Source: Verrucomicrobiota bacterium (GTDB taxonomy: Bacteria; Verrucomicrobiota; Verrucomicrobiia; Chthoniobacterales; UBA10450). Taken from it: a stretch of DNA of 64,000 nucleotides. The notes under the pieces are model-generated. The model did not search any database. It saw nothing but the letters and a program-made list of their open reading frames with translations, and was not told the DNA's origin. The position numbers and the translations under genes are program-made. The stretch spans positions 4,500 to 68,499 of the forward strand of contig QHOX01000162.1 of NCBI GenBank assembly GCA_003219465.1, given 5' to 3'. Positions 4,511 to 11,460 of this stretch are shown here, piece after piece (positions within the stretch are counted from its first letter, which is position 1; each line of letters begins with the position of its first letter).

Positions 4511-5559
4511 TTAGCGATTAGTCAGGACCGTTTGCGGCGCTGCCTTGCTCAGTTCAAGGTGTGCGCTCACTTTCTGAAGACCTGTAGTAAGCGCTTCAAT
4601 TTGCTTCTGCTGGTGTGCCGCGATTGCTTGGAAGTCCATCTCCTGCTGTGCCACCGTAGATTTCAGTTCAGTGATCGTCGCCTGCTGTTCTTCCACCTTG
4701 CGGTGCTCTTTGAGAAATTCGTTGAGCAACATTGCGTTCACCGCTTCATAGCGCACGCTGTACGGTCTTCCTTGATCGTCACGGGCCACGAGATCAGGAT
4801 TTACCTTTTCTACTTCCTCTGCCACAAGACCGAATTGTGCAATGCCGGCAGGATCAAGCTCCTTCTTGTAGCGGAACGTGACCGGCTTAAGATCTTCTCC
4901 TTGTAACGATCGGAGGAAAGGACCGTGCCGAGGTGACCGTCGGAATCGATTATCACTCCTACGCCTTCCGCGACTATGGCCCCACTGATGCCGGCCATGT
5001 AGGTGGCGCTTTGCGTTGCAGGATCGCCGATCCGGATCGTGCCCGAGTCGTGATCCCTACCGTGGTTACCAATCATGATGTTGTTATTAGCACCGCCCTT
5101 ACATCTATAACCGGCTTGACGACCTAATGCGATGTTGTTGTTGCCAGTGTAGTTACCGCCGAGCGCACTATGTCCGACGGCGGTGTTGTCGGAGCCGGTC
5201 GCGTTGACGACGAGCGCATGAACACCGATGGCCGTGTTGTTATTGCCGTTGCTGTTGTAAAGGAGTGCTCCAAAACCGGTGGCCGTGTTGGAGCTGCCGT
5301 TGAAGTTGAACCCCCCGAGTGCACCAGCACCGGTGGCCGTGTTGAAGCTGCCGGTTGTGTTGTTGATGAGCGCATTGAAACCGACTGCCGTGTTCCATGC
5401 GCCGAGATTGTTCAAGAGCGCGTCTTCACCGAGGAACGTATTGCTGACGTCGCTGCCGCGGCCTTCTTGACAGACCGCTCGCGCTTGCGGCGAAAGCGCA
5501 AAGCAGGCGAGCGCGAACAGCGCGAACGCGGCATAACTAATATTCGTTGTTGTTTTCAT
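4511..5559 (-). pseudogene. frameshifted paralogue of the S74 fibre-like protein
   Basis: ORFs 4810..5559 and 4511..4825 are in different frames. Together they align with the adjacent 381-aa protein: signal peptide, NTAxG repeats, SSDRYKEK vs SSERFKDD, then an identical VAEEVEKVNPDLVARDDQGRPYSVRYEAVNAMLLNEFLKEH. The segment between the CTCGGCAC and CTTAAG anchors is 33 nt here versus 70 nt in the intact copy. That is net -37 nt, not a multiple of 3. Confidence 0.65.
4705..4891. repeat. 187-nt block nearly identical to 5717..5903 (1 mismatch)
   Basis: Direct comparison shows 4725..4891 = 5737..5903 exactly (167 nt). One mismatch at 4724/5736, then 19 more identical nt. Flanking coding sequence is strongly diverged. 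Confidence 0.9.
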
Positions 5560-5576
5560 CGGTTTATTTCTTTTGG

Positions 5577-6722
5577 TTACTGATTATTTGCAATGGTTTC
5601 CATTACAGGTTTGCTGGTTTCGAGCTGTGCGGTCACTTTCTGTAGTCCCTCGGTAAGCGCTGCAACTTGTTGCTTCAGTTCTTCAACGGTGCGGTGCTCC
5701 TCCAAAAACGCTTTATGCTCTTTGAGAAATTCGTTAAGCAACATTGCGTTCACCGCTTCATAGCGCACGCTGTACGGTCTTCCTTGATCGTCACGGGCCA
5801 CGAGATCAGGATTTACCTTTTCTACTTCCTCTGCCACAAGACCGAATTGTGCAATGCCGGCAGGATCAAGCTCCTTCTTGTAGCGGAACGTGACCGGCTT
5901 AAGCGCCAAAATCGCTTCGCTCGCTTTGTCCATCGGTCGCACATCATCTTTGAATCTCTCTGAGGAAACGATCGTGCCGAGATGGCCATTGCTATCGATG
6001 ATGACACCCACTCCGCCCGCAATGGTCGACCCACTGATTCCGGCAATAAAGGTGTGCTTCTGAGTTCCAACGGTACCGATGCGGATGTGGTTAGACTCGT
6101 CTCCCAACGCAGAGTTACCGATGTCGATATTGTTGTCGCCCTTAACAATCGATGAACCAGCTGAAGCCCCCAATGCGATATTGTTGTGACCCATGACGTT
6201 GCTAAAGAGTGCATTAACCCCTATCGCCGTGTTGTTGTTGCCACCTGTGTTGTAAGTAAGCGCAGTAGTACCGCACGCTGTATTGTTGCTGCCCGTTGTG
6301 TTGTAACCAAGCGCAGCAGCACCGCTCGCTGTATTGGAGCTGCCCGTTGTGTTCGCCTCAAGCGCATCGGTACCGGTGGCAGTGTTGTAAGCGCCGGTTG
6401 TGTTGTCGAGGAGGGCAGCAGCGCCGATTGCGGTATTTTGGTAGCCGGCGGTATTGCTTGAGAGTGCGCCGTCGCCGGTGCCCGTATTGAGGACACCGTT
6501 AAGGTTGTTAGAGAGCACATCCCTGCCGATGGCCGTATTGTTGGCGCCCGGGAACGTTGTAGCCAAAGCGTCTTCGCCTAGGAACGTGTTGCCGCTGCCT
6601 GGGTCGCCGCAACCGTTTTCGCAAACAGCGCAGACTTGCGGTGAAAGCGCAAACCAGGCGAGCGTCAGTGCGATGAGAACTGGCAGAATTGTTGTGTTTT
6701 TGGACTGAGTCAGCGGATTCAT
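5577..6722 (-). CDS. secreted fibre-like protein: YadA-head-like NTAxG repeats + peptidase S74 intramolecular-chaperone (self-cleaving) domain
   Basis: 381-aa ORF. Signal peptide TILPVLIALTLAWFALSPQVCA. Repeats include NNTAIG, NTATG, NTASG, NNTACG, NNTAIGVNAL and NNIALG. These are followed by GHLGTIVSSERFKDDV..LKPVTFRYKK..GLVAEEVEKVNPDLV and a coiled-coil tail, which is the S74 S-(D/E)-R-x-K autoprocessing context. Confidence 0.75.
   Translation of the reverse strand: MNPLTQSKNTTILPVLIALTLAWFALSPQVCAVCENGCGDPGSGNTFLGEDALATTFPGANNTAIGRDVLSNNLNGVLNTGTGDGALSSNTAGYQNTAIGAAALLDNTTGAYNTATGTDALEANTTGSSNTASGAAALGYNTTGSNNTACGTTALTYNTGGNNNTAIGVNALFSNVMGHNNIALGASAGSSIVKGDNNIDIGNSALGDESNHIRIGTVGTQKHTFIAGISGSTIAGGVGVIIDSNGHLGTIVSSERFKDDVRPMDKASEAILALKPVTFRYKKELDPAGIAQFGLVAEEVEKVNPDLVARDDQGRPYSVRYEAVNAMLLNEFLKEHKAFLEEHRTVEELKQQVAALTEGLQKVTAQLETSKPVMETIANNQ
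5717..5903. repeat. partner of the 187-nt near-identical block at 4705..4891
   Basis: See 4705..4891. Confidence 0.9.
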
Positions 6723-6900
6723 GGTTCTTCCTCTCTTCTTCCCCGCTGAGTTGATTTTCTGCGGTTGAGGGGTCCGAAAGAGGCGACGAATCTAGCGGGG
6801 GAAGTCCTCCGCCTGATTCAGATCCGTTTAGCGAGGCGGATTTTGAAAAAATCTCACCTACTCGTCAAGAAGAAATGTCAGGCGTCGCCCAATTTGCGTA
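6723..6900 (-). promoter_or_regulatory. conserved promoter + 5' leader cassette ('repeat A', copy 1) upstream of the S74 fibre gene
   Basis: In gene sense: TTGACG (6869..6864), 17 nt, CAAAAT (6846..6841). A ~115-nt leader follows that is shared with copies at 8968..9116 and 10463..10615, then GGAAGAAGAGAGGAAG and ATG. Confidence 0.6.
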
Positions 6901-6990
6901 AGCTATGCAAAATGTGCACGTGTTAGCGTTCAGTCTGGGCCGTTTGCACTGCGGCTTGTTCAGTTTACCGGGCCGTCACCGTCTGACGGG

Positions 6991-8448
6991 TCATGCCGCT
7001 GGCTTCTTCTTCGGGATCACGATGGCGTCCGGCTCTTGGTTTTTGGCTTCTCTCAGTTGCTCACGCTTCGCAAAAGCCGGCTCTATGATGTATTTTTTGA
7101 GGTTCTCACCGTCCAACAGGTCTTCCTTCGATTCATATTTGCGGGTAGGCAATACCCAGTGAAAAGAGTTCTGCGAATCAACAAGCATCGCAAAGGGACG
7201 CGGGTCTACACTGATATCAATGATGGGAATGTAGGGGATTTTGAACTGCTTGACCGTAGCCTCTAATTCTAAAGGGGTTGATTTTGGACTGGTCAAATCC
7301 GCAATGACAAACATGCTCATTCCCGCCAGTGTCTGTACCGTCTCGGTATAGTCCTTATCGGTGGGGCGATCAAAATCAAACACTATAGGCAACAGATCGA
7401 ACTGCCGCAGGCCCTCCCTTAACCCGTCGAGCACGGACCTGCGTTGAGGATCAGAGAACCTTCCAAGAATCAGTACGCCCTTCGATGTGATTGTGTTGAT
7501 CACATTCCGAATTTTGGTATTGTTCAATATCAGGTAAATGAACTGGCCGACTTCCAGGTCATCTACGGTGACGACAGGTTCACCCTCCTTTGTGATGACT
7601 AAGTTATGTTGGACAGTGCCCACCAAGGTCACGTTCCAGGCAGAAGCTCCGTAAGTACGACAGCCGGTAATCGTGGCACTGGTGAAGTCGGTTTCCACCA
7701 AACCGGTACGGCTCAAATCGGCGTCGGTTAGATCAGCACTGGTTAGGTTGGCACCCCGTAGGTCGACATCGGCTAGGATGGCGCCGCGCAGCTTAGCCTT
7801 GCTCAGGTTGGCACGGAGCAGGTTGGCATCGCTCAGGCTGGCATCGTTCAGATTGGCACCGCTCAGGTTGGCACCGCTCAGGTTGGCACCGCTCAGGTAG
7901 GCACCGCTCAGGTCGGCACCGATCAGCTTGGCATCGCTCAGGTTGGCACCGATCGGGTTGGCACGGCTCAGGTTGGCACCGCTCAGGTCGGCACCGCTCA
8001 GGTCGGCATCGCTGAGATTGGCATTGCTCAGGTTGGCATCGCCCAGGTTGGCACGGCGCAGGTTGGCACCGCTCAGGTTAACACGGCTCAGGTTGGCACC
8101 GCTCAGGTTGGCACGGCTCAGGTCGGCACGGCTGAGGTTAGCATCGCTCAGGCTGGTACCGTTCAGGTTGGCACGGCTCAGGTTGGCACTGCTCAGGTAG
8201 GCGCCGTTCAGGTTGGCACCGCTCAGGTTGGCATCGCTGAAGTTGGCATCGCTGAGGTTGGCACGGCTCAGGTTGGCATCGCTCAGGCTGGTACCGCTCA
8301 GGTCGGCACGGCTCAGGTTGGTACCGCTCAGGTTGGCATTAAACAGCTCGGCACCGCCCAAGTCCGGCCTAGTAGCATTCTCTAATCGCCACTTATTCCA
8401 CTGCTCTACACCCTGCTTGAGTATTTTGAGATGTTCTTCATTTGCCAT
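6991..8448 (-). CDS. pentapeptide-repeat protein with uncharacterised C-terminal alpha/beta (TIR/NDT-like?) domain
   Basis: 485-aa ORF with a strong SD (GAGAGGAG) 8 nt upstream of the ATG. About 45 A(D/N)LSx pentapeptides span aa ~30-255. There is no signal peptide. The C-terminal module (aa 323-485) reads VLILGRF.., LPIVFDFD, MFVIADLTSPKSTPLELE. Confidence 0.85.
   Translation of the reverse strand: MANEEHLKILKQGVEQWNKWRLENATRPDLGGAELFNANLSGTNLSRADLSGTSLSDANLSRANLSDANFSDANLSGANLNGAYLSSANLSRANLNGTSLSDANLSRADLSRANLSGANLSRVNLSGANLRRANLGDANLSNANLSDADLSGADLSGANLSRANPIGANLSDAKLIGADLSGAYLSGANLSGANLSGANLNDASLSDANLLRANLSKAKLRGAILADVDLRGANLTSADLTDADLSRTGLVETDFTSATITGCRTYGASAWNVTLVGTVQHNLVITKEGEPVVTVDDLEVGQFIYLILNNTKIRNVINTITSKGVLILGRFSDPQRRSVLDGLREGLRQFDLLPIVFDFDRPTDKDYTETVQTLAGMSMFVIADLTSPKSTPLELEATVKQFKIPYIPIIDISVDPRPFAMLVDSQNSFHWVLPTRKYESKEDLLDGENLKKYIIEPAFAKREQLREAKNQEPDAIVIPKKKPAA
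7683..8361. repeat. 15-nt periodic coding repeat (GCTCAGGTTGGCACC-type units) encoding the pentapeptide array
   Basis: Dozens of near-identical 15-mers visible on the plus strand: gctcaggttggcacc, gctcaggtcggcacc, gctcaggttggcatc. Confidence 0.9.
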
Positions 8449-8532
8449 GGCCTCAAGCTCCTCTCATTAAAATACGGCACACTGATACTTGTTTCAAAAT
8501 GGGCCAATCCTTTGACTTTCAAGATCGGGCGC

Positions 8533-8967
8533 TTACTGCGGGATTGATGGTTTATTAATCCACACGGTTTCCACAAAAACAGGATTCCCAGGTCGTGCAC
8601 AGCTAGTGTCACAGCACCCAAATGTCGAAGAATGCACAACGGTAGCGGCCCCGGTAGCCCGACGCGTCCATATCTGGTAGCCATAGGCAAAGCACCCTCC
8701 ATTATCATCGTCGGTGACGGTACAGGTAAGGTTGTTAGCACCCTGGACCAGCCTTGAGGTGAGATCAAAGGTTCCTGTCTCCCCAAAATTTAACGTCAGG
8801 ACTACCGTGCCATTCAACGTGCACGTCATATGGTCATCTACACCTGTGACGGTGATACCAACGTGACTCGCTCCAAGTTGAACGGTGGTTTCGGCGCGAA
8901 GATCGTGTGTGGTGATGGTGGACAGCAACGCACCTGTAGCGACTAACAGAATAAGCTTCGTATACAT
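8533..8967 (-). CDS. small secreted hypothetical protein (Cys-containing, beta-rich)
   Basis: 144-aa ORF. Signal peptide MYTKLILLVATGALLSTITTHDLRA. It sits directly behind leader cassette copy 2 and 84 nt upstream of the pentapeptide gene. No recognisable family. Confidence 0.55.
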   Translation of the reverse strand: MYTKLILLVATGALLSTITTHDLRAETTVQLGASHVGITVTGVDDHMTCTLNGTVVLTLNFGETGTFDLTSRLVQGANNLTCTVTDDDNGGCFAYGYQIWTRRATGAATVVHSSTFGCCDTSCARPGNPVFVETVWINKPSIPQ

Positions 8968-9116
8968 AATTCCTTTCTTTTTTCCGCTACGTTGATTCTG
9001 CGATTCGCGGGTCCGGAAGGGGCGAAGAACCTAGCGGGGGAAGTCCTCCGCCTGATTCAGATCCGTTTAGCGAGGCCGATTTTGAAAAAATCTCATCTGC
9101 TCGTCAAGAAGAAATG
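8968..9116 (-). promoter_or_regulatory. conserved promoter + 5' leader cassette ('repeat A', copy 2)
   Basis: TTGACG (9107..9102), 17 nt, CAAAAT (9084..9079), then the conserved leader, AAAGAAAGGAA and ATG at 8967. Confidence 0.6.
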
Positions 9117-9262
9117 TCAGGCATCGCTAAATTTGCATATAGGGCTCGTCTGACTCGGGTAATCGTTTTGTTGCGCTTCACGGCGAGCAGGATAAAGCCC
9201 CGCCCGAATTACGACCGGGGGCCTCCGTTGATAGCCCGAGACATGAGCATCAGTTAGCGATT
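9117..9262 (-). repeat. conserved 3' cassette ('repeat B', copy 2)
   Basis: Aligns with 4381..4510, including the GCCCCCGG..CGGGCGGGGCTTTATC hairpin and a TTAGCGATT stop-codon-like junction. No intact gene ends here. Confidence 0.55.
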
Positions 9263-9369
9263 TGAGCATGGCTCGCTTGGCAGCGTCAGAGGGAAACTGG
9301 AAGCTGCGTGATCCACGCATCGAGGTTTATGGTACAAATACTACGTTGCGAGTGTGATCCCCTCGTGGG

Positions 9370-10462
9370 CTACTTCTCCGTTGGCGTGCCTCGAAAGCAA
9401 CGCGGAATATATGGAAAACCTTCCGTGATGAAACAGCAGTAGATTATCTGGTTCAAATCAGGGGAGTAGCAGACCTTGCCGTTGCATTGGTCGAGGTGGT
9501 CGTCTCCCGTGCCTATCGTGTACTCGTAGTCGTTGACAAAAGTACCGAGAGGGAACTTCGTATCATCGGGCTCCCCCCACTCGCTGCGTAGCGAGCCTTC
9601 CTTAATTTCCACCCGGACTTCATGGTGATCAGCTCACCGCCTTGCTTGAGTTGACCGTACTTCCAATAGACAGGAAATCCGTCAAACGCCCAACCCACGA
9701 GAGTCATTCGTTTAGGAAGGCATGGCTCTTGGACTTGAGCGATCGCGGCGGCAGTCTGGGTCGTAAGCTTGTGATAGTGGTAGAGCCCGCCCTTCTGGGT
9801 GTGCGCGATGTGATTGTCCATGTCGAGCTGGGCCTCTTCGCAGCACATCCACCAAGGGCGGATGTTGCCCCCTGCGTTTAGTTGCCATCTCACTTTCTGG
9901 GGGGCAATCTGCTGCGGTTCCAACCGCGAAGTTGTCGATGCAATCGACGTTCTTTGCGCCGCCGCAGGCTTTCGATGCCGTTTGCGTCCAGATGGCGACA
10001 TCCTCGGGATCGAACGGTACGCCATTGAGGGCGACCCCGAAGCGCTGTGGTCGTGTCGAGAATGGCTCCGGACATACCGTGACGGGGGTCGTGGTAGCCG
10101 CCTCACTGGGGTTGAGAGGTATTCTGAAGTGGTACTCATGCGTGGCGATTGGGTCGTGATAGGACGTATCAACGCAATGATTGGGAATCCCATTGGAGTC
10201 GATATGACGGTAGGCGTTGTCCGTCCAAATACTGCGCACGGACTCCAGCGTATTGCCTTTCCCCTCCTTCAACCAGATCTCGCCCTCGGGGCACTTGATG
10301 CTGGGGCCGATATGCATGCCGAGACACGGGACTGGCTCGAGCTCTTGGGGGGCGGTCCTTGGGGGCCGCGAGAATGATCGTTGGCAAAAATCCAAAGCAA
10401 GCAAGCACAATAGTGACGAGAACTGTCAGGATTGTTTGTTTAAGATGAATCAACGAATTCAT
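9370..10462 (-). pseudogene. YHYH-domain secreted protein, broken by three frameshifts
   Basis: Four ORF pieces in frames 1/0/2/0 (10462.., 10410.., 10193.., 9612..) together give a full YHYH-type protein. The pieces read: signal peptide MNSLIHLKQTILTVLVTIVLACFGFL; then GIPNHCVDTSYHDPIATHEYHFRIP; then NHIAHTQKGGLYHYH..LVGWAFDGFPVY; then FVNDYEYTIGTGDDHLDQCNGK. The frame changes sit at G6 (10347..10352), G6 (9899..9904) and a G3 run near 9610. Confidence 0.7.
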
Positions 10463-10615
10463 TGGTTCTTCCTTTCTTTTCCCCCGCTACATTGATTCTG
10501 CGATTCGCGGGTCCGGAAGGGGCGAAGAACCTAGCGGGGAAATGTCCTCCGCCTGATTCAGATCCGTCTAGCGCCGTCGAGTTTGGAAAAAATTTTGCCG
10601 GTTTGTCAAGCGAGG
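10463..10615 (-). promoter_or_regulatory. conserved promoter + 5' leader cassette ('repeat A', copy 3, -10 degenerate)
   Basis: TTGACA (10609..10604), 17 nt, CCAAAC. The leader is about 90% identical to copy 2 over ~100 nt. Confidence 0.5.
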
Positions 10616-10633
10616 AAACTTATGGAGTGGTAG

Positions 10634-10677
10634 GGACGCCACACACTGCGGCGTCCGGACAGCGCAGCGCGCTGTCC
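10634..10677. repeat. twin palindromic hairpins (GGACGCC-9nt-GGCGTCC and GGACAGCGC-agc-GCGCTGTCC) 3' of the sulfotransferase gene
   Basis: Inverted repeats read directly. The second is the same palindrome as 535..553. Confidence 0.7.
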
Positions 10678-10683
10678 CCACCC

Positions 10684-11460
10684 TCACAATTTCCAATCTG
10701 AGCAATCCCAGCCCAGCATCTGTTCAACCTCCGCGATGTCTTCTGCGAACAGGTGGTAAAGGAAAACGCGTTCCTCCCAGTTCATCCCCCGTTCGTATGG
10801 CACGATGTTTCTGTCTTTGTTGCGCACCGACCGCAGAGGTTTGCAGCCAAGGAATGAGAGAATCGAGGTGAGGGTTTCGCGCCGCTTTGCTTTGAAGTTT
10901 TCGAACTTTACCGCCTTTACGTGCTCACGCGGAAAAAATTTGAAGAGGCGCTCGAGTTGGCGTCCGTAAAAACCACGATCGATGTAGGCAAAACGCCGGG
11001 CATCAACGGGAGGCGCACCGCTGATGCGCGTTTGCTCTTCGCGCACGGCGTCGAAAAAATCCAGCGGTTCCCGGCCTTTGAACCGTTGCATGTTCCAATG
11101 CGCAAACGCGCGCTCGATCGGGTTACGCAGAATGATCAATAATTTGATTTTCGGATTGTAATTCCAGATCCGTTCCGCCGCCGGCTCGTGATAAAGATAA
11201 CTGGGTGTGCAATCGCCAGCGATCATTGACTGAGTAAGGGGCCGATAGTGTTTGTGCAGTTGCTCGTAATCGGGCTCGGAAACGAACAGCGCATCGTTAT
11301 CGAAGAAATGGATTTCCTGCTTATCGCCCATGCAGATATCGGGATGTCTGCTCAGGAAGTAGTGCAGCGCTGTCGTGCCGGATTTTTGCGCGCCGGCCAG
11401 AATGAAGTCGAGCCGGTCAATTTTGCGGCGCTTGCTTCGAAACATTGGGGAAATGTACAT
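10684..11460 (-). CDS. sulfotransferase family protein
   Basis: LDFILAGAQKSGTTALHYFL (5'-PSB loop) and LIILRNPIERAFAHW (3'-PB motif). Start placed at the ATG at 11460 (MYISPMFRSKRRK). The longer ORF to 11553 overlaps the divergent S46 gene. Confidence 0.8.
   Translation of the reverse strand: MYISPMFRSKRRKIDRLDFILAGAQKSGTTALHYFLSRHPDICMGDKQEIHFFDNDALFVSEPDYEQLHKHYRPLTQSMIAGDCTPSYLYHEPAAERIWNYNPKIKLLIILRNPIERAFAHWNMQRFKGREPLDFFDAVREEQTRISGAPPVDARRFAYIDRGFYGRQLERLFKFFPREHVKAVKFENFKAKRRETLTSILSFLGCKPLRSVRNKDRNIVPYERGMNWEERVFLYHLFAEDIAEVEQMLGWDCSDWKL

Follow-up and report, generated by a model that had tools for sequence, protein, structure and literature searches.

A lineage-restricted, structured 5′ leader family with a putative pseudoknot beside the Shine-Dalgarno sequence, found upstream of secreted-protein genes in Candidatus Udaeobacter

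The window analyzed here is a stretch of 64,000 nucleotides (64 kb) from a Verrucomicrobiota bacterium (assembly GCA_003219465.1, contig QHOX01000162.1, positions 4,500 to 68,499). On its minus strand it carries three copies of a non-coding element, at approximately 6723–6900, 8968–9139, and 10463–10615, each of which terminates in a purine-rich Shine-Dalgarno sequence (SD) and an ATG. An initial annotation, made from the sequence alone, had described these as one conserved promoter and structured 5′ leader placed in front of three unrelated secreted-protein genes, and the three minus-sense copies, each immediately 5′ of a start codon, are evident in the sequence, in an alignment, and in a profile search. 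The genes that follow encode a Peptidase_S74 fibre protein, a 144-aa protein with a pentapeptide-repeat gene behind it, and a broken YHYH protein (Table 1). A repeat finder matched 6757–6900 with 8996–9139 at 90% identity over 144 nt (copies 1 and 2) and covered the core with two further three-copy repeat families, copy 3 has 84–97% identity with copies 1 and 2 over 55–59 nt, and the three-way alignment contains long invariant stretches. For both the 24-mer ACGGATCTGAATCAGGCGGAGGAC and the 31-nt degenerate pattern CCCCGCTAGNTTCNTCGCCNCTTNCGGACCC there are exactly three occurrences, and none was seen in 100 dinucleotide shuffles. A profile search gave three matches with E values of 1e-31 to 1e-36 and a next match at E = 0.04, so that a fourth copy was not found in the 64-kb window. 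The TTGACG-17-CAAAAT promoter annotated for copies 1 and 2 was detected by a consensus scan, and the TTGACA-17-CCAAAC written for copy 3 is equivalent to TTGACA-18-CAAACT, the consensus of the wider family. The downstream coding sequences had been said to share no similarity, which holds generally except that the genes behind copies 1 and 3 have a signal-peptide start in common (MNPLTQSK and MNSLIHLK).

The element is a lineage-specific family and not a local duplication. A scan of one genome per GTDB species with the 19-mer GATCTGAATCAGGCGGAGG returned 108 stretches where approximately 4 would be expected by chance (2 × 596e9 / 4^19), and the matches fell almost entirely in Candidatus Udaeobacter or in unnamed Verrucomicrobiota metagenome-assembled genomes (MAGs) from soil. 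Candidatus Udaeobacter is among the most abundant of soil bacteria and is not in pure culture, so that almost nothing has been learned of its gene regulation. Exact 19-mer matches numbered 116 including the three in the window, 108 with the rest of the leader and 8 by chance, and a profile search of the fetched loci recovered 22 more copies without the exact 19-mer, some of them clearly divergent. For a metagenome scan the anchor was instead the SD with the first codons (GAAAGGAAGAACCATGAATCC), which lie beyond the leader core, and this gave at least 120 loci; among the metagenome matches listed, the leader lay upstream of 103 of 124 anchor sites. Its 5′ half was still at least 80–90% conserved in the set anchored only on the SD and ATGAATCC, which shows that the conservation does not stem from the choice of the 19-mer as anchor. 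The genome and metagenome scans together yielded at least 233 distinct copies, nearly all of them from soil MAGs of Candidatus Udaeobacter or other Verrucomicrobiota and from soil metagenomes; the window's own genome is not represented in these loci. The best nucleotide matches to the window elsewhere comprised only the leader, the promoter, and the first approximately 80 nt of coding sequence, at 84–88% over 160–320 nt, and the non-coding element is thus better conserved than its flanks. True leader copies were also seen on contigs of MAGs assigned outside the Verrucomicrobia (L038, Bryobacteraceae; L074, Deltaproteobacteria; L033, L044, L045, L066, and L075), some of which also carry the fibre genes and a 69-aa open reading frame (ORF) discussed below; most likely these are mis-binned Udaeobacter contigs rather than a sign of horizontal spread. 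No copies were found in viral contigs, and a phage origin, which the phage-like S74 domain might have suggested, was rejected.

The copies are tied to gene starts. In most, the start codon lies 97–113 nt past the first base of the 19-mer, and an ORF was at the expected place in 209 of the 233 copies recovered, the rest being contig ends, pseudogenes, and a few false matches. Approximately 90% of the copies elsewhere therefore stand in front of a gene, as had been proposed for the window, and are not scattered in the manner of a plain dispersed repeat. Some indels across the copies are not multiples of three, which rules out that the leader is coding. Two or three copies were found in 40 of 200 sources, and 46 of 47 neighboring copies lay on the same strand and were co-oriented with the genes, with a spacing mostly of 1.4–1.9 kb, which means one leader per gene in an array. 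A single family, with Peptidase_S74 and the N-terminus MNPLIQLK...LACFALSPxAQAV-PPPDGGYPGxNTAEG, accounts for about half of the downstream proteins (118), and 45 more have an MNPLI-type signal peptide on a different mature part. Another 46 are unrelated (42 classed as other and 4 kinase-like) and include Kelch-repeat, ricin-type lectin, NHL/SGL, reprolysin-like protease, DUF6519, and ECF-sigma-like proteins as well as Ser/Thr kinases with TPR repeats.

The promoter is not part of the conserved unit in the same sense. Class A (156 copies, the three in the window included) has TTGACA-17/18-CAAACT with a −10 element ending 17 nt before TCTGAATC; class B (approximately 20 copies) has another conserved upstream region, ...TTAGGCGACGCCTGAC-T(T/A)GACA-17-TAAAAA; and other copies, class C, have a third promoter type. 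In all three classes the conserved leader begins approximately where transcription would start, and because the same leader stands behind at least three promoter types, the promoter positions point to the leader RNA as what is conserved. Of the promoter and leader unit initially proposed, then, the leader part stands and the promoter part varies. An ECF-type (extracytoplasmic function) reading of the upstream region was rejected for misfit of the spacing; the sigma-70-like TTGACA-17/18-CAAACT fits.

Five pairings within the leader were proposed by inspecting alignments. P1, GGaUCUG(AA) with (UU)cCGGACC, would form the lower part of a hairpin, and P2, GGCGGAGGAC with GUUCUUCGCC, its upper part. 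A pseudoknot (PK) would join the P2 loop, CCCCGCUA, to UAGCGGGG directly 5′ of the SD. Hairpin A, GGCGGaGG with CCcCCGCU, competes with these and excludes P2 and PK, and D is an anti-SD pairing of GGUUCUUC with GAAGAACC. When 148 diverse copies were aligned with MAFFT and the columns counted against 500 shuffles, 93.9% of cells were paired for P2 and 80.8% for PK, in both cases with covariation above all 500 shuffles. A covariance model was made from P1 and P2, and in the alignment of its 137 matches, which was not fitted to PK, PK was again above every shuffle. Since MAFFT and the model both mis-place the most divergent copies, an alignment-free test was added in which each strand was paired both with its own partner and with the partners of other copies and the duplex energies were compared (148 sequences, 2000 permutations). 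It gave z scores of −4.2 for P1, −4.2 for P2, −7.9 for PK, and −5.4 for hairpin A, none of them reached in any of the 2000 permutations, and five control strand pairs were null, as were the controls taken per lineage. With one sequence per lineage (n = 9), p was < 0.0001 for PK, 0.017 for P1, 0.022 for hairpin A, and 0.052 for P2. PK is the long-range CCGCT(A)/(T)AGCGG pairing of the initial annotation, and it proved the best-supported helix by covariation and by the alignment-free and per-lineage tests. The CCGCCT/AGGCGG pairing annotated for copy 1 is present there and is not kept in the other copies.

Individual changes show what lies behind these scores. The PK strands CCCCGCUA/UAGCGGGG change in concert to CUCCCGA/UCGGGG, CCUCGGUG/CACCGGGG, UCUCUCGG/CCGAGAGA, or CCCCCGUCA/UGACGGGGG, and the P1 strands GGaUCUG/CGGACC change to GGUCUGAA/UUCAGACC. 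At loci L006 and L086 a typical and a divergent leader type occur together, each retaining the complementarity between its own strands. Two P2 pairs are G-U in 124–136 sequences and one P1 pair is U-G in 74–80, and the structure is consequently possible only on the strand that is sense to the downstream gene. In the window, P2 of copy 2 has ten perfect pairs and the P1-P2 hairpin is the minimum free energy (MFE) fold of that copy; in copy 1, CCCCGCTA has an alternative partner in the GGCGG of P2, which gives hairpin A. A structure consisting of the P1-P2 hairpin and a pseudoknot from its loop to the vicinity of the SD is supported but not proven by the sequence comparisons. RNAalifold returned parts of P1 and P2 only, with weak energy, because the alignment is gappy. 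Extension of PK past its 7-bp core in typical copies had no covariation and was not retained. D had 85.8% of cells paired, no covariation excess, and slid registers that pair equally well; it was rejected as a conserved pairing and retained only as a plausible consequence of hairpin A. The leader is not an RNA thermometer of the ROSE or fourU kind by the criterion of a conserved SD-masking pairing, since D shows no covariation and no Rfam thermometer matched. No terminator follows the leader.

We lean toward the interpretation that the leader is a cis-acting structured module of the 5′ untranslated region (UTR) that sets translation initiation, likely as a two-state switch. The transcription start, the effect on translation, and the switching are what we infer here. 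Each copy would consist of a promoter and an approximately 105-nt 5′ untranslated leader of the mRNA, with transcription expected to start 5–10 nt 5′ of CGGAUCUG. In one state the P1-P2 hairpin would form and its apical loop CCCCGCUA would pair with UAGCGGGG, ending 17 nt (approximately 17–18 nt) before the AUG, so that an H-type pseudoknot together with P2 would sequester the pyrimidine-rich strands and leave the A/G-rich ribosome binding site (RBS), AAAAGAAAGGAAGAACC-AUG, single-stranded. In the other state, hairpin A would break P2 and the pseudoknot and free GGUUCUUC, which could then mask GAAGAACC at the SD and start. A trans-acting factor would most likely shift the leader between the two folds, and in this way many secreted and surface genes would have the initiation of their translation, and perhaps also the life-time of their mRNA, set by the leader. 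Rough energies for 86 typical leaders were −26.9 kcal/mol for nested P1 and P2, with −17.4 kcal/mol for the PK duplex before any loop penalty, and −38.9 kcal/mol for the hairpin-A state, near the unconstrained MFE; on these rough figures the two folds would be close in energy. The SD was 66% unpaired in the P1-P2 state vs. 36% in the hairpin-A state. The very high conservation of the stems would fit a role of every strand in two different pairings, or recognition of the strands by a factor.

Several results weigh against this structure or against the switch built on it. P1 (90.6% paired) and hairpin A (91.9% paired) showed no column-wise covariation excess over shuffles, and hairpin A was not above shuffles in the covariance-model alignment either. 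In the alignment-free test D was null (z +0.5 for 148 sequences, p 0.12 for n = 9), and the anti-SD strands pair only weakly in copy 2 and among the divergent copies. Single-sequence MFE folds of the three window copies were no more stable than shuffles (z −1.08, +0.18, and −0.15), so that thermodynamics lends no support when taken by itself. In typical copies, which vary little, the pairs flanking the PK core are without covariation, and since typical copies are near-invariant the structural support comes from approximately nine divergent lineages, a small number; this is also where the covariation was found. Because the two scans that collected the copies each started from an exact word, the sample is biased to conserved copies. 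Finally, the P1-P2 hairpin alone may be able to function, judging from copies linked to kinase genes (L026, L031, L035, L100, and L104). Of the leader these retain the P1-P2 half and no more, a different conserved sequence, ...AACTCGTGATCAGTGnAnTCAGGGTTTGCGGAAGGTGCGGAGC, standing in place of the SD and the pseudoknot 3′ strand, and the kinases behind them begin MISxxRVCGRCGAK...CPACLLE.

The main rival, possible if less probable than a two-state switch, is a static insulator or stabilizer, in which the fold never switches, blocks 5′-end-dependent decay, and keeps the RBS open. Such a model would explain the portability of the leader between unrelated genes, and it fits a leader that is modular before at least eight unrelated protein types and a pseudoknot that hides all the pyrimidine-rich strands while the A/G-rich RBS is free; the missing covariation of the anti-SD helix, and column-wise of hairpin A, is in its favor as well. 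Such a leader would resemble the ompA 5′ UTR or synthetic RBS insulators. The ompA-type stabilizers are structured 5′ UTRs of approximately 100–130 nt with a hairpin near the 5′ end, on mRNAs for an abundant exported protein, and the present leader resembles them in its length of approximately 105 nt, its hairpin near the 5′ end, and its exported-protein genes. Unlike it, however, they are not known to form dispersed families or to contain a pseudoknot between a loop and the vicinity of the SD. A static fold would not account for the complementarity of hairpin A being kept in divergent copies (nine perfect pairs at −17.3 kcal/mol in L006, and the z of −5.4 and p of 0.022 given above), nor for stems far more conserved than pairing alone needs, and we regard the two-state switch as the more likely of the two.

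A precedent for alternative folds beside an SD exists in the E. coli rpsO (S15) and alpha-operon (S4) operators, where hairpins or an SD-adjacent pseudoknot form and the fold decides initiation. The present leader would likewise be a 5′ leader with hairpin and pseudoknot alternatives near the SD. Each of those operators, however, is present in one copy, serves the feedback control of a single ribosomal-protein operon, and binds a protein that this operon encodes, whereas the Udaeobacter leader is multi-copy and precedes diverse secreted-protein genes. As to what might do the switching, a bistable pseudoknot/hairpin switch through which a dedicated trans factor controls the surface and secreted proteome is a more specific proposal that we consider unlikely, though not implausible. 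The candidate factor could be a signaling molecule or the product of the small ORF mentioned above, a very abundant protein with a predicted fold like that of double-stranded-RNA-binding domains (dsRBDs). In most class-A copies the DNA 5′ of the −35 element is the 3′ end of this ORF (...WEIIADNLSKAGWSWGCVSAIDSNGRTIWIADAHRDDGKRFVVRADEKLTAFLELESAIRACGEL before the stop), its TGA stop lying inside TTGACA; the ORF has 69 aa, MKYWEIIADNLSKAGWSWGCVSAIDSNGRTIWIADAHRDDGKRFVVRADEKLTAFLELESAIRACGEL. The ORF represents a real protein family of at least 8000 clusters at 90% identity, all annotated as hypothetical, and Pfam, NCBIfam, and PDB sequence searches with the 69-aa protein gave nothing significant. 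Its AlphaFold model is confident and has the order alpha-beta-beta-beta-alpha (pLDDT, the predicted local distance difference test, 92.5), and the best PDB fold matches are dsRBDs, weakly (E 0.016–0.1, template-modeling score 0.5–0.7). The P1-P2 helix, of approximately 17 bp, is the right size for a dsRBD-like domain, and it is speculation that the 69-aa protein might read it. At L229 (6001–6210) the order is intact, with a fibre-gene tail, the 69-aa gene, promoter, leader, and next fibre gene. Matches to the 69-aa protein in the loci numbered 179 (including L089, L163, and L211), 92 of them with a leader at most 90 nt 3′ and most of them decayed, and the window has none. The ORF could merely be the last gene of the preceding unit of a tandem array.

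Quite unlikely, in our judgment, is a ligand-sensing riboswitch, for example one for a second messenger, in which the pseudoknotted domain would serve as aptamer and the ligand would pick the pseudoknot or hairpin A. The leader does resemble the preQ1-II, SAM-II/V, and fluoride riboswitches as a compact pseudoknotted 5′-UTR element beside the RBS. Its proposed structure has two mutually exclusive pairings next to the SD, its unpaired AAUCA and the linker AAUCAAC are nearly invariant, and many copies per genome stand before adhesin-like fibres, lectins, and a protease. This gene set recalls c-di-GMP riboswitch regulons, the c-di-GMP classes recurring many times in a genome, upstream of genes for adhesins, pili, and proteases. 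The leader differs from these riboswitches, however, in that it matches no Rfam model, riboswitches included, and its genes give no metabolic clue; they have no coherent metabolic or transport theme, and the RNA has no multi-stem junction typical of aptamers. With the covariance models of Rfam 15 at the gathering threshold there were no matches in the whole window, and at E ≤ 10 over 6600–10800 there were three chance-level matches (16 bits), none credible for the leader; one of them, isrO, was set aside as an opposite-strand chance overlap with copy 2. The failure of the initial annotation to recognize a known leader family was thus well founded. The leader belongs to none of the rpsO/alpha-operon, pseudoknot riboswitch, or ompA-type families, and a literature search for such a leader in Udaeobacter or for structured non-coding RNA in Verrucomicrobia found nothing relevant.

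A DNA-level operator or promoter-proximal protein site, with the RNA pairings incidental, might account for the very high block conservation of the sequence and for the occurrence of TCAGGCG in both the leader and the upstream palindrome TTAGGCGACGCCTGA. It is very improbable given that concerted changes on two strands preserve pairing, that the G-U pairs would be C-A mismatches on the opposite strand, and that the distance is fixed to the SD and ATG and not to one promoter type. Least probable of all is functionless selfish or duplicated DNA, a repeat like a miniature inverted-repeat transposable element (MITE) or a recently copied promoter region: the element is multi-copy, forms tandem arrays, adjoins many decayed ORFs, and would count operationally as a putative mobile promoter (PMC3575422), but terminal inverted repeats common to the copies and the gene-start-independent insertion of MITEs or repeats derived from insertion sequences were not found, 46 of 47 neighbors are co-oriented with genes at a fixed distance from the start codon, the element is conserved across many species-level MAGs while its flanks diverge, and viral contigs have none.

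Putative mobile promoters in the sense of Matus-Garcia, Nijveen and van Passel (2012) are upstream regions of non-paralogous genes in one genome that are highly similar, with an identity of at least 80% across 50 nt or more. As the commentary on the concept states, its authors pointed out that RNA motifs account for some of these regions and that Rfam has no match for most (PMC3575422). Copies 1 and 2, at 90% over 144 nt, and copy 3, at 84–97% over 55–59 nt, fall within this definition, the S74, 144-aa, and YHYH proteins being non-paralogous. Putative mobile promoter is, however, an operational label without a mechanism, whereas the present leader is, by its promoter positions, transcribed, keeps its pairing, and stands behind several promoters. 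Taken together the results support a new family of structured 5′ leaders, restricted to one lineage, in which a pseudoknot joins a loop to the vicinity of the SD, and support the interpretation of the initial annotation as essentially right. One leader before many secreted and surface genes would give a candidate regulon straight from sequence, and a mechanism-bearing example of a mobile promoter whose portable part is a folded 5′ UTR. The family also offers a compact pseudoknotted RNA for structural and for ligand- or protein-binding studies, and the leader could serve as a sequence tag to find Udaeobacter exported proteins in soil metagenomes and their expression in metatranscriptomes.

Table 1. 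Leader copies, their predicted structural parts, and the genes behind them in the window (positions within the 64,000-nt stretch)
Feature	Position	Strand	Details
Copy 1 promoter	6840..6868	-	−35 TTGACG 6863-6868, 17-nt spacer, −10 CAAAAT 6840-6845; consensus scan
Copy 1 leader RNA	6723..6833	-	5′ end predicted ~7 nt past −10; profile E 6.6e-31; covariance model 118 bits
Copy 1 P1-P2 hairpin domain	6770..6826	-	two P2 mismatches
Copy 1 P1	6817-6826 with 6770-6779	-	CGGATCTGAA with TTTCGGACCC
Copy 1 P2	6804-6813 with 6782-6791	-	GGCGGAGGAC with ATTCGTCGCC
Copy 1 pseudoknot 5′ strand	6793..6800	-	CCCCGCTA; within P2 apical loop
Copy 1 pseudoknot 3′ strand	6741..6748	-	CAGCGGGG; directly 5′ of SD; duplex −15.6 kcal/mol
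Copy 1 SD and ATG	6720..6736	-	AGAGAGGAA 6728-6736, ATG 6720-6722; starts Peptidase_S74 fibre gene
Copy 2 promoter	9079..9107	-	TTGACG 9102-9107, 17 nt, CAAAAT 9079-9084; consensus scan
Copy 2 leader RNA	8968..9072	-	5′ end predicted; profile E 6.7e-32; covariance model 111.5 bits
Copy 2 P1-P2 hairpin	9009..9065	-	P1 9056-9065 with 9009-9018; P2 9043-9052 with 9021-9030
Copy 2 pseudoknot 5′ strand	9032..9039	-	CCCCGCTA
Copy 2 pseudoknot 3′ strand	8982..8989	-	TAGCGGAA; GG to AA, pairing weakened to −10.2 kcal/mol
Copy 2 SD and ATG	8965..8980	-	AAAGAAAGGAA 8970-8980, ATG 8965-8967; starts 144-aa gene
Copy 3 promoter	10580..10609	-	TTGACA 10604-10609, 18 nt, CAAACT 10580-10585; matches class-A consensus
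Copy 3 leader RNA	10463..10573	-	5′ end predicted; profile E 9.8e-36; covariance model 134 bits
Copy 3 P1-P2 hairpin	10509..10566	-	P1 10557-10566 with 10509-10518; P2 10544-10553 with 10521-10530
Copy 3 pseudoknot 5′ strand	10532..10539	-	CCCCGCTA
Copy 3 pseudoknot 3′ strand	10482..10489	-	TAGCGGGG; duplex −18.8 kcal/mol
Copy 3 SD and ATG	10460..10479	-	AAAGAAAGGAA 10469-10479, ATG 10460-10462; starts frameshifted YHYH gene
Gene behind copy 1	5577-6722	-	381 aa; Peptidase_S74 domain E 2e-12
Gene behind copy 2	8533-8967	-	144 aa; no family assigned
Pentapeptide-repeat gene behind the 144-aa gene	6991-8448	-	E 3e-78
YHYH gene behind copy 3	9370-10462	-	broken across three frames

Some further observations concern the sequences on either side of the leader. 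Just 5′ of the −35 element there is a palindrome, (T)TAGGCGACGCCTGA(C), at 6878–6892 and 9117–9131 on the minus strand of the window, copy 1 having the form GGGCGACGCCTGAC and copy 2 the form TAGCGATGCCTGAC. Among class-B copies (e.g. L078, L035, and L062) it lies inside a longer conserved block, CCCTACATAAAAATTAGGCGnCGCCTGAC. It may be what is left of a terminator, or a site bound by a protein. On the 3′ side, the first codons AUGAAUCCAUUGAUUCAG of most MNPLIQ-type genes (6720–6700 in the window) allow a possible hairpin, UGAAUC/GAUUCA, around the start codon, and are also complementary to leader CUGAAUCA. The complementarity of CUGAAUCA with codons 4–6, UGAUUCAG (MNPLIQ), is striking, but it was rejected as a pairing, there being no cis-over-trans signal (z approximately 0). 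MNP-type gene starts without the leader made up 21 of the 124 matches listed (loci L113, L119, L125, L138, L160, L162, L165, L166, L191, and L192, and further L195, L199, L212, L214, and L216). They have other conserved upstream sequences, e.g. ...GCCAACAACAATCCAGCCTCAACAAAGAAAGGAAG and ...TTTTCAAAAGATTnCCGnATTTTCCGnGTAACCTCAGGCCGAATTTCCGGCTGTACAT, and genes of this kind may thus be served by a second leader family.

Within the window, the fibre-type neighbors include a 188-nt stretch at 99% identity (4704–4891 vs. 5716–5903), 51-nt periodic internal repeats (5157–6539), and similar signal-peptide DNA (5455–5513 vs. 6606–6664), which suggests recent gene conversion or duplication among paralogous fibre genes. 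The gene at 4810–5559 lies 17 nt behind the first gene and is without a leader of its own. A strong 15-nt periodicity at 7599–8333 (36 overlapping copies) belongs to the coding sequence of the pentapeptide-repeat gene.

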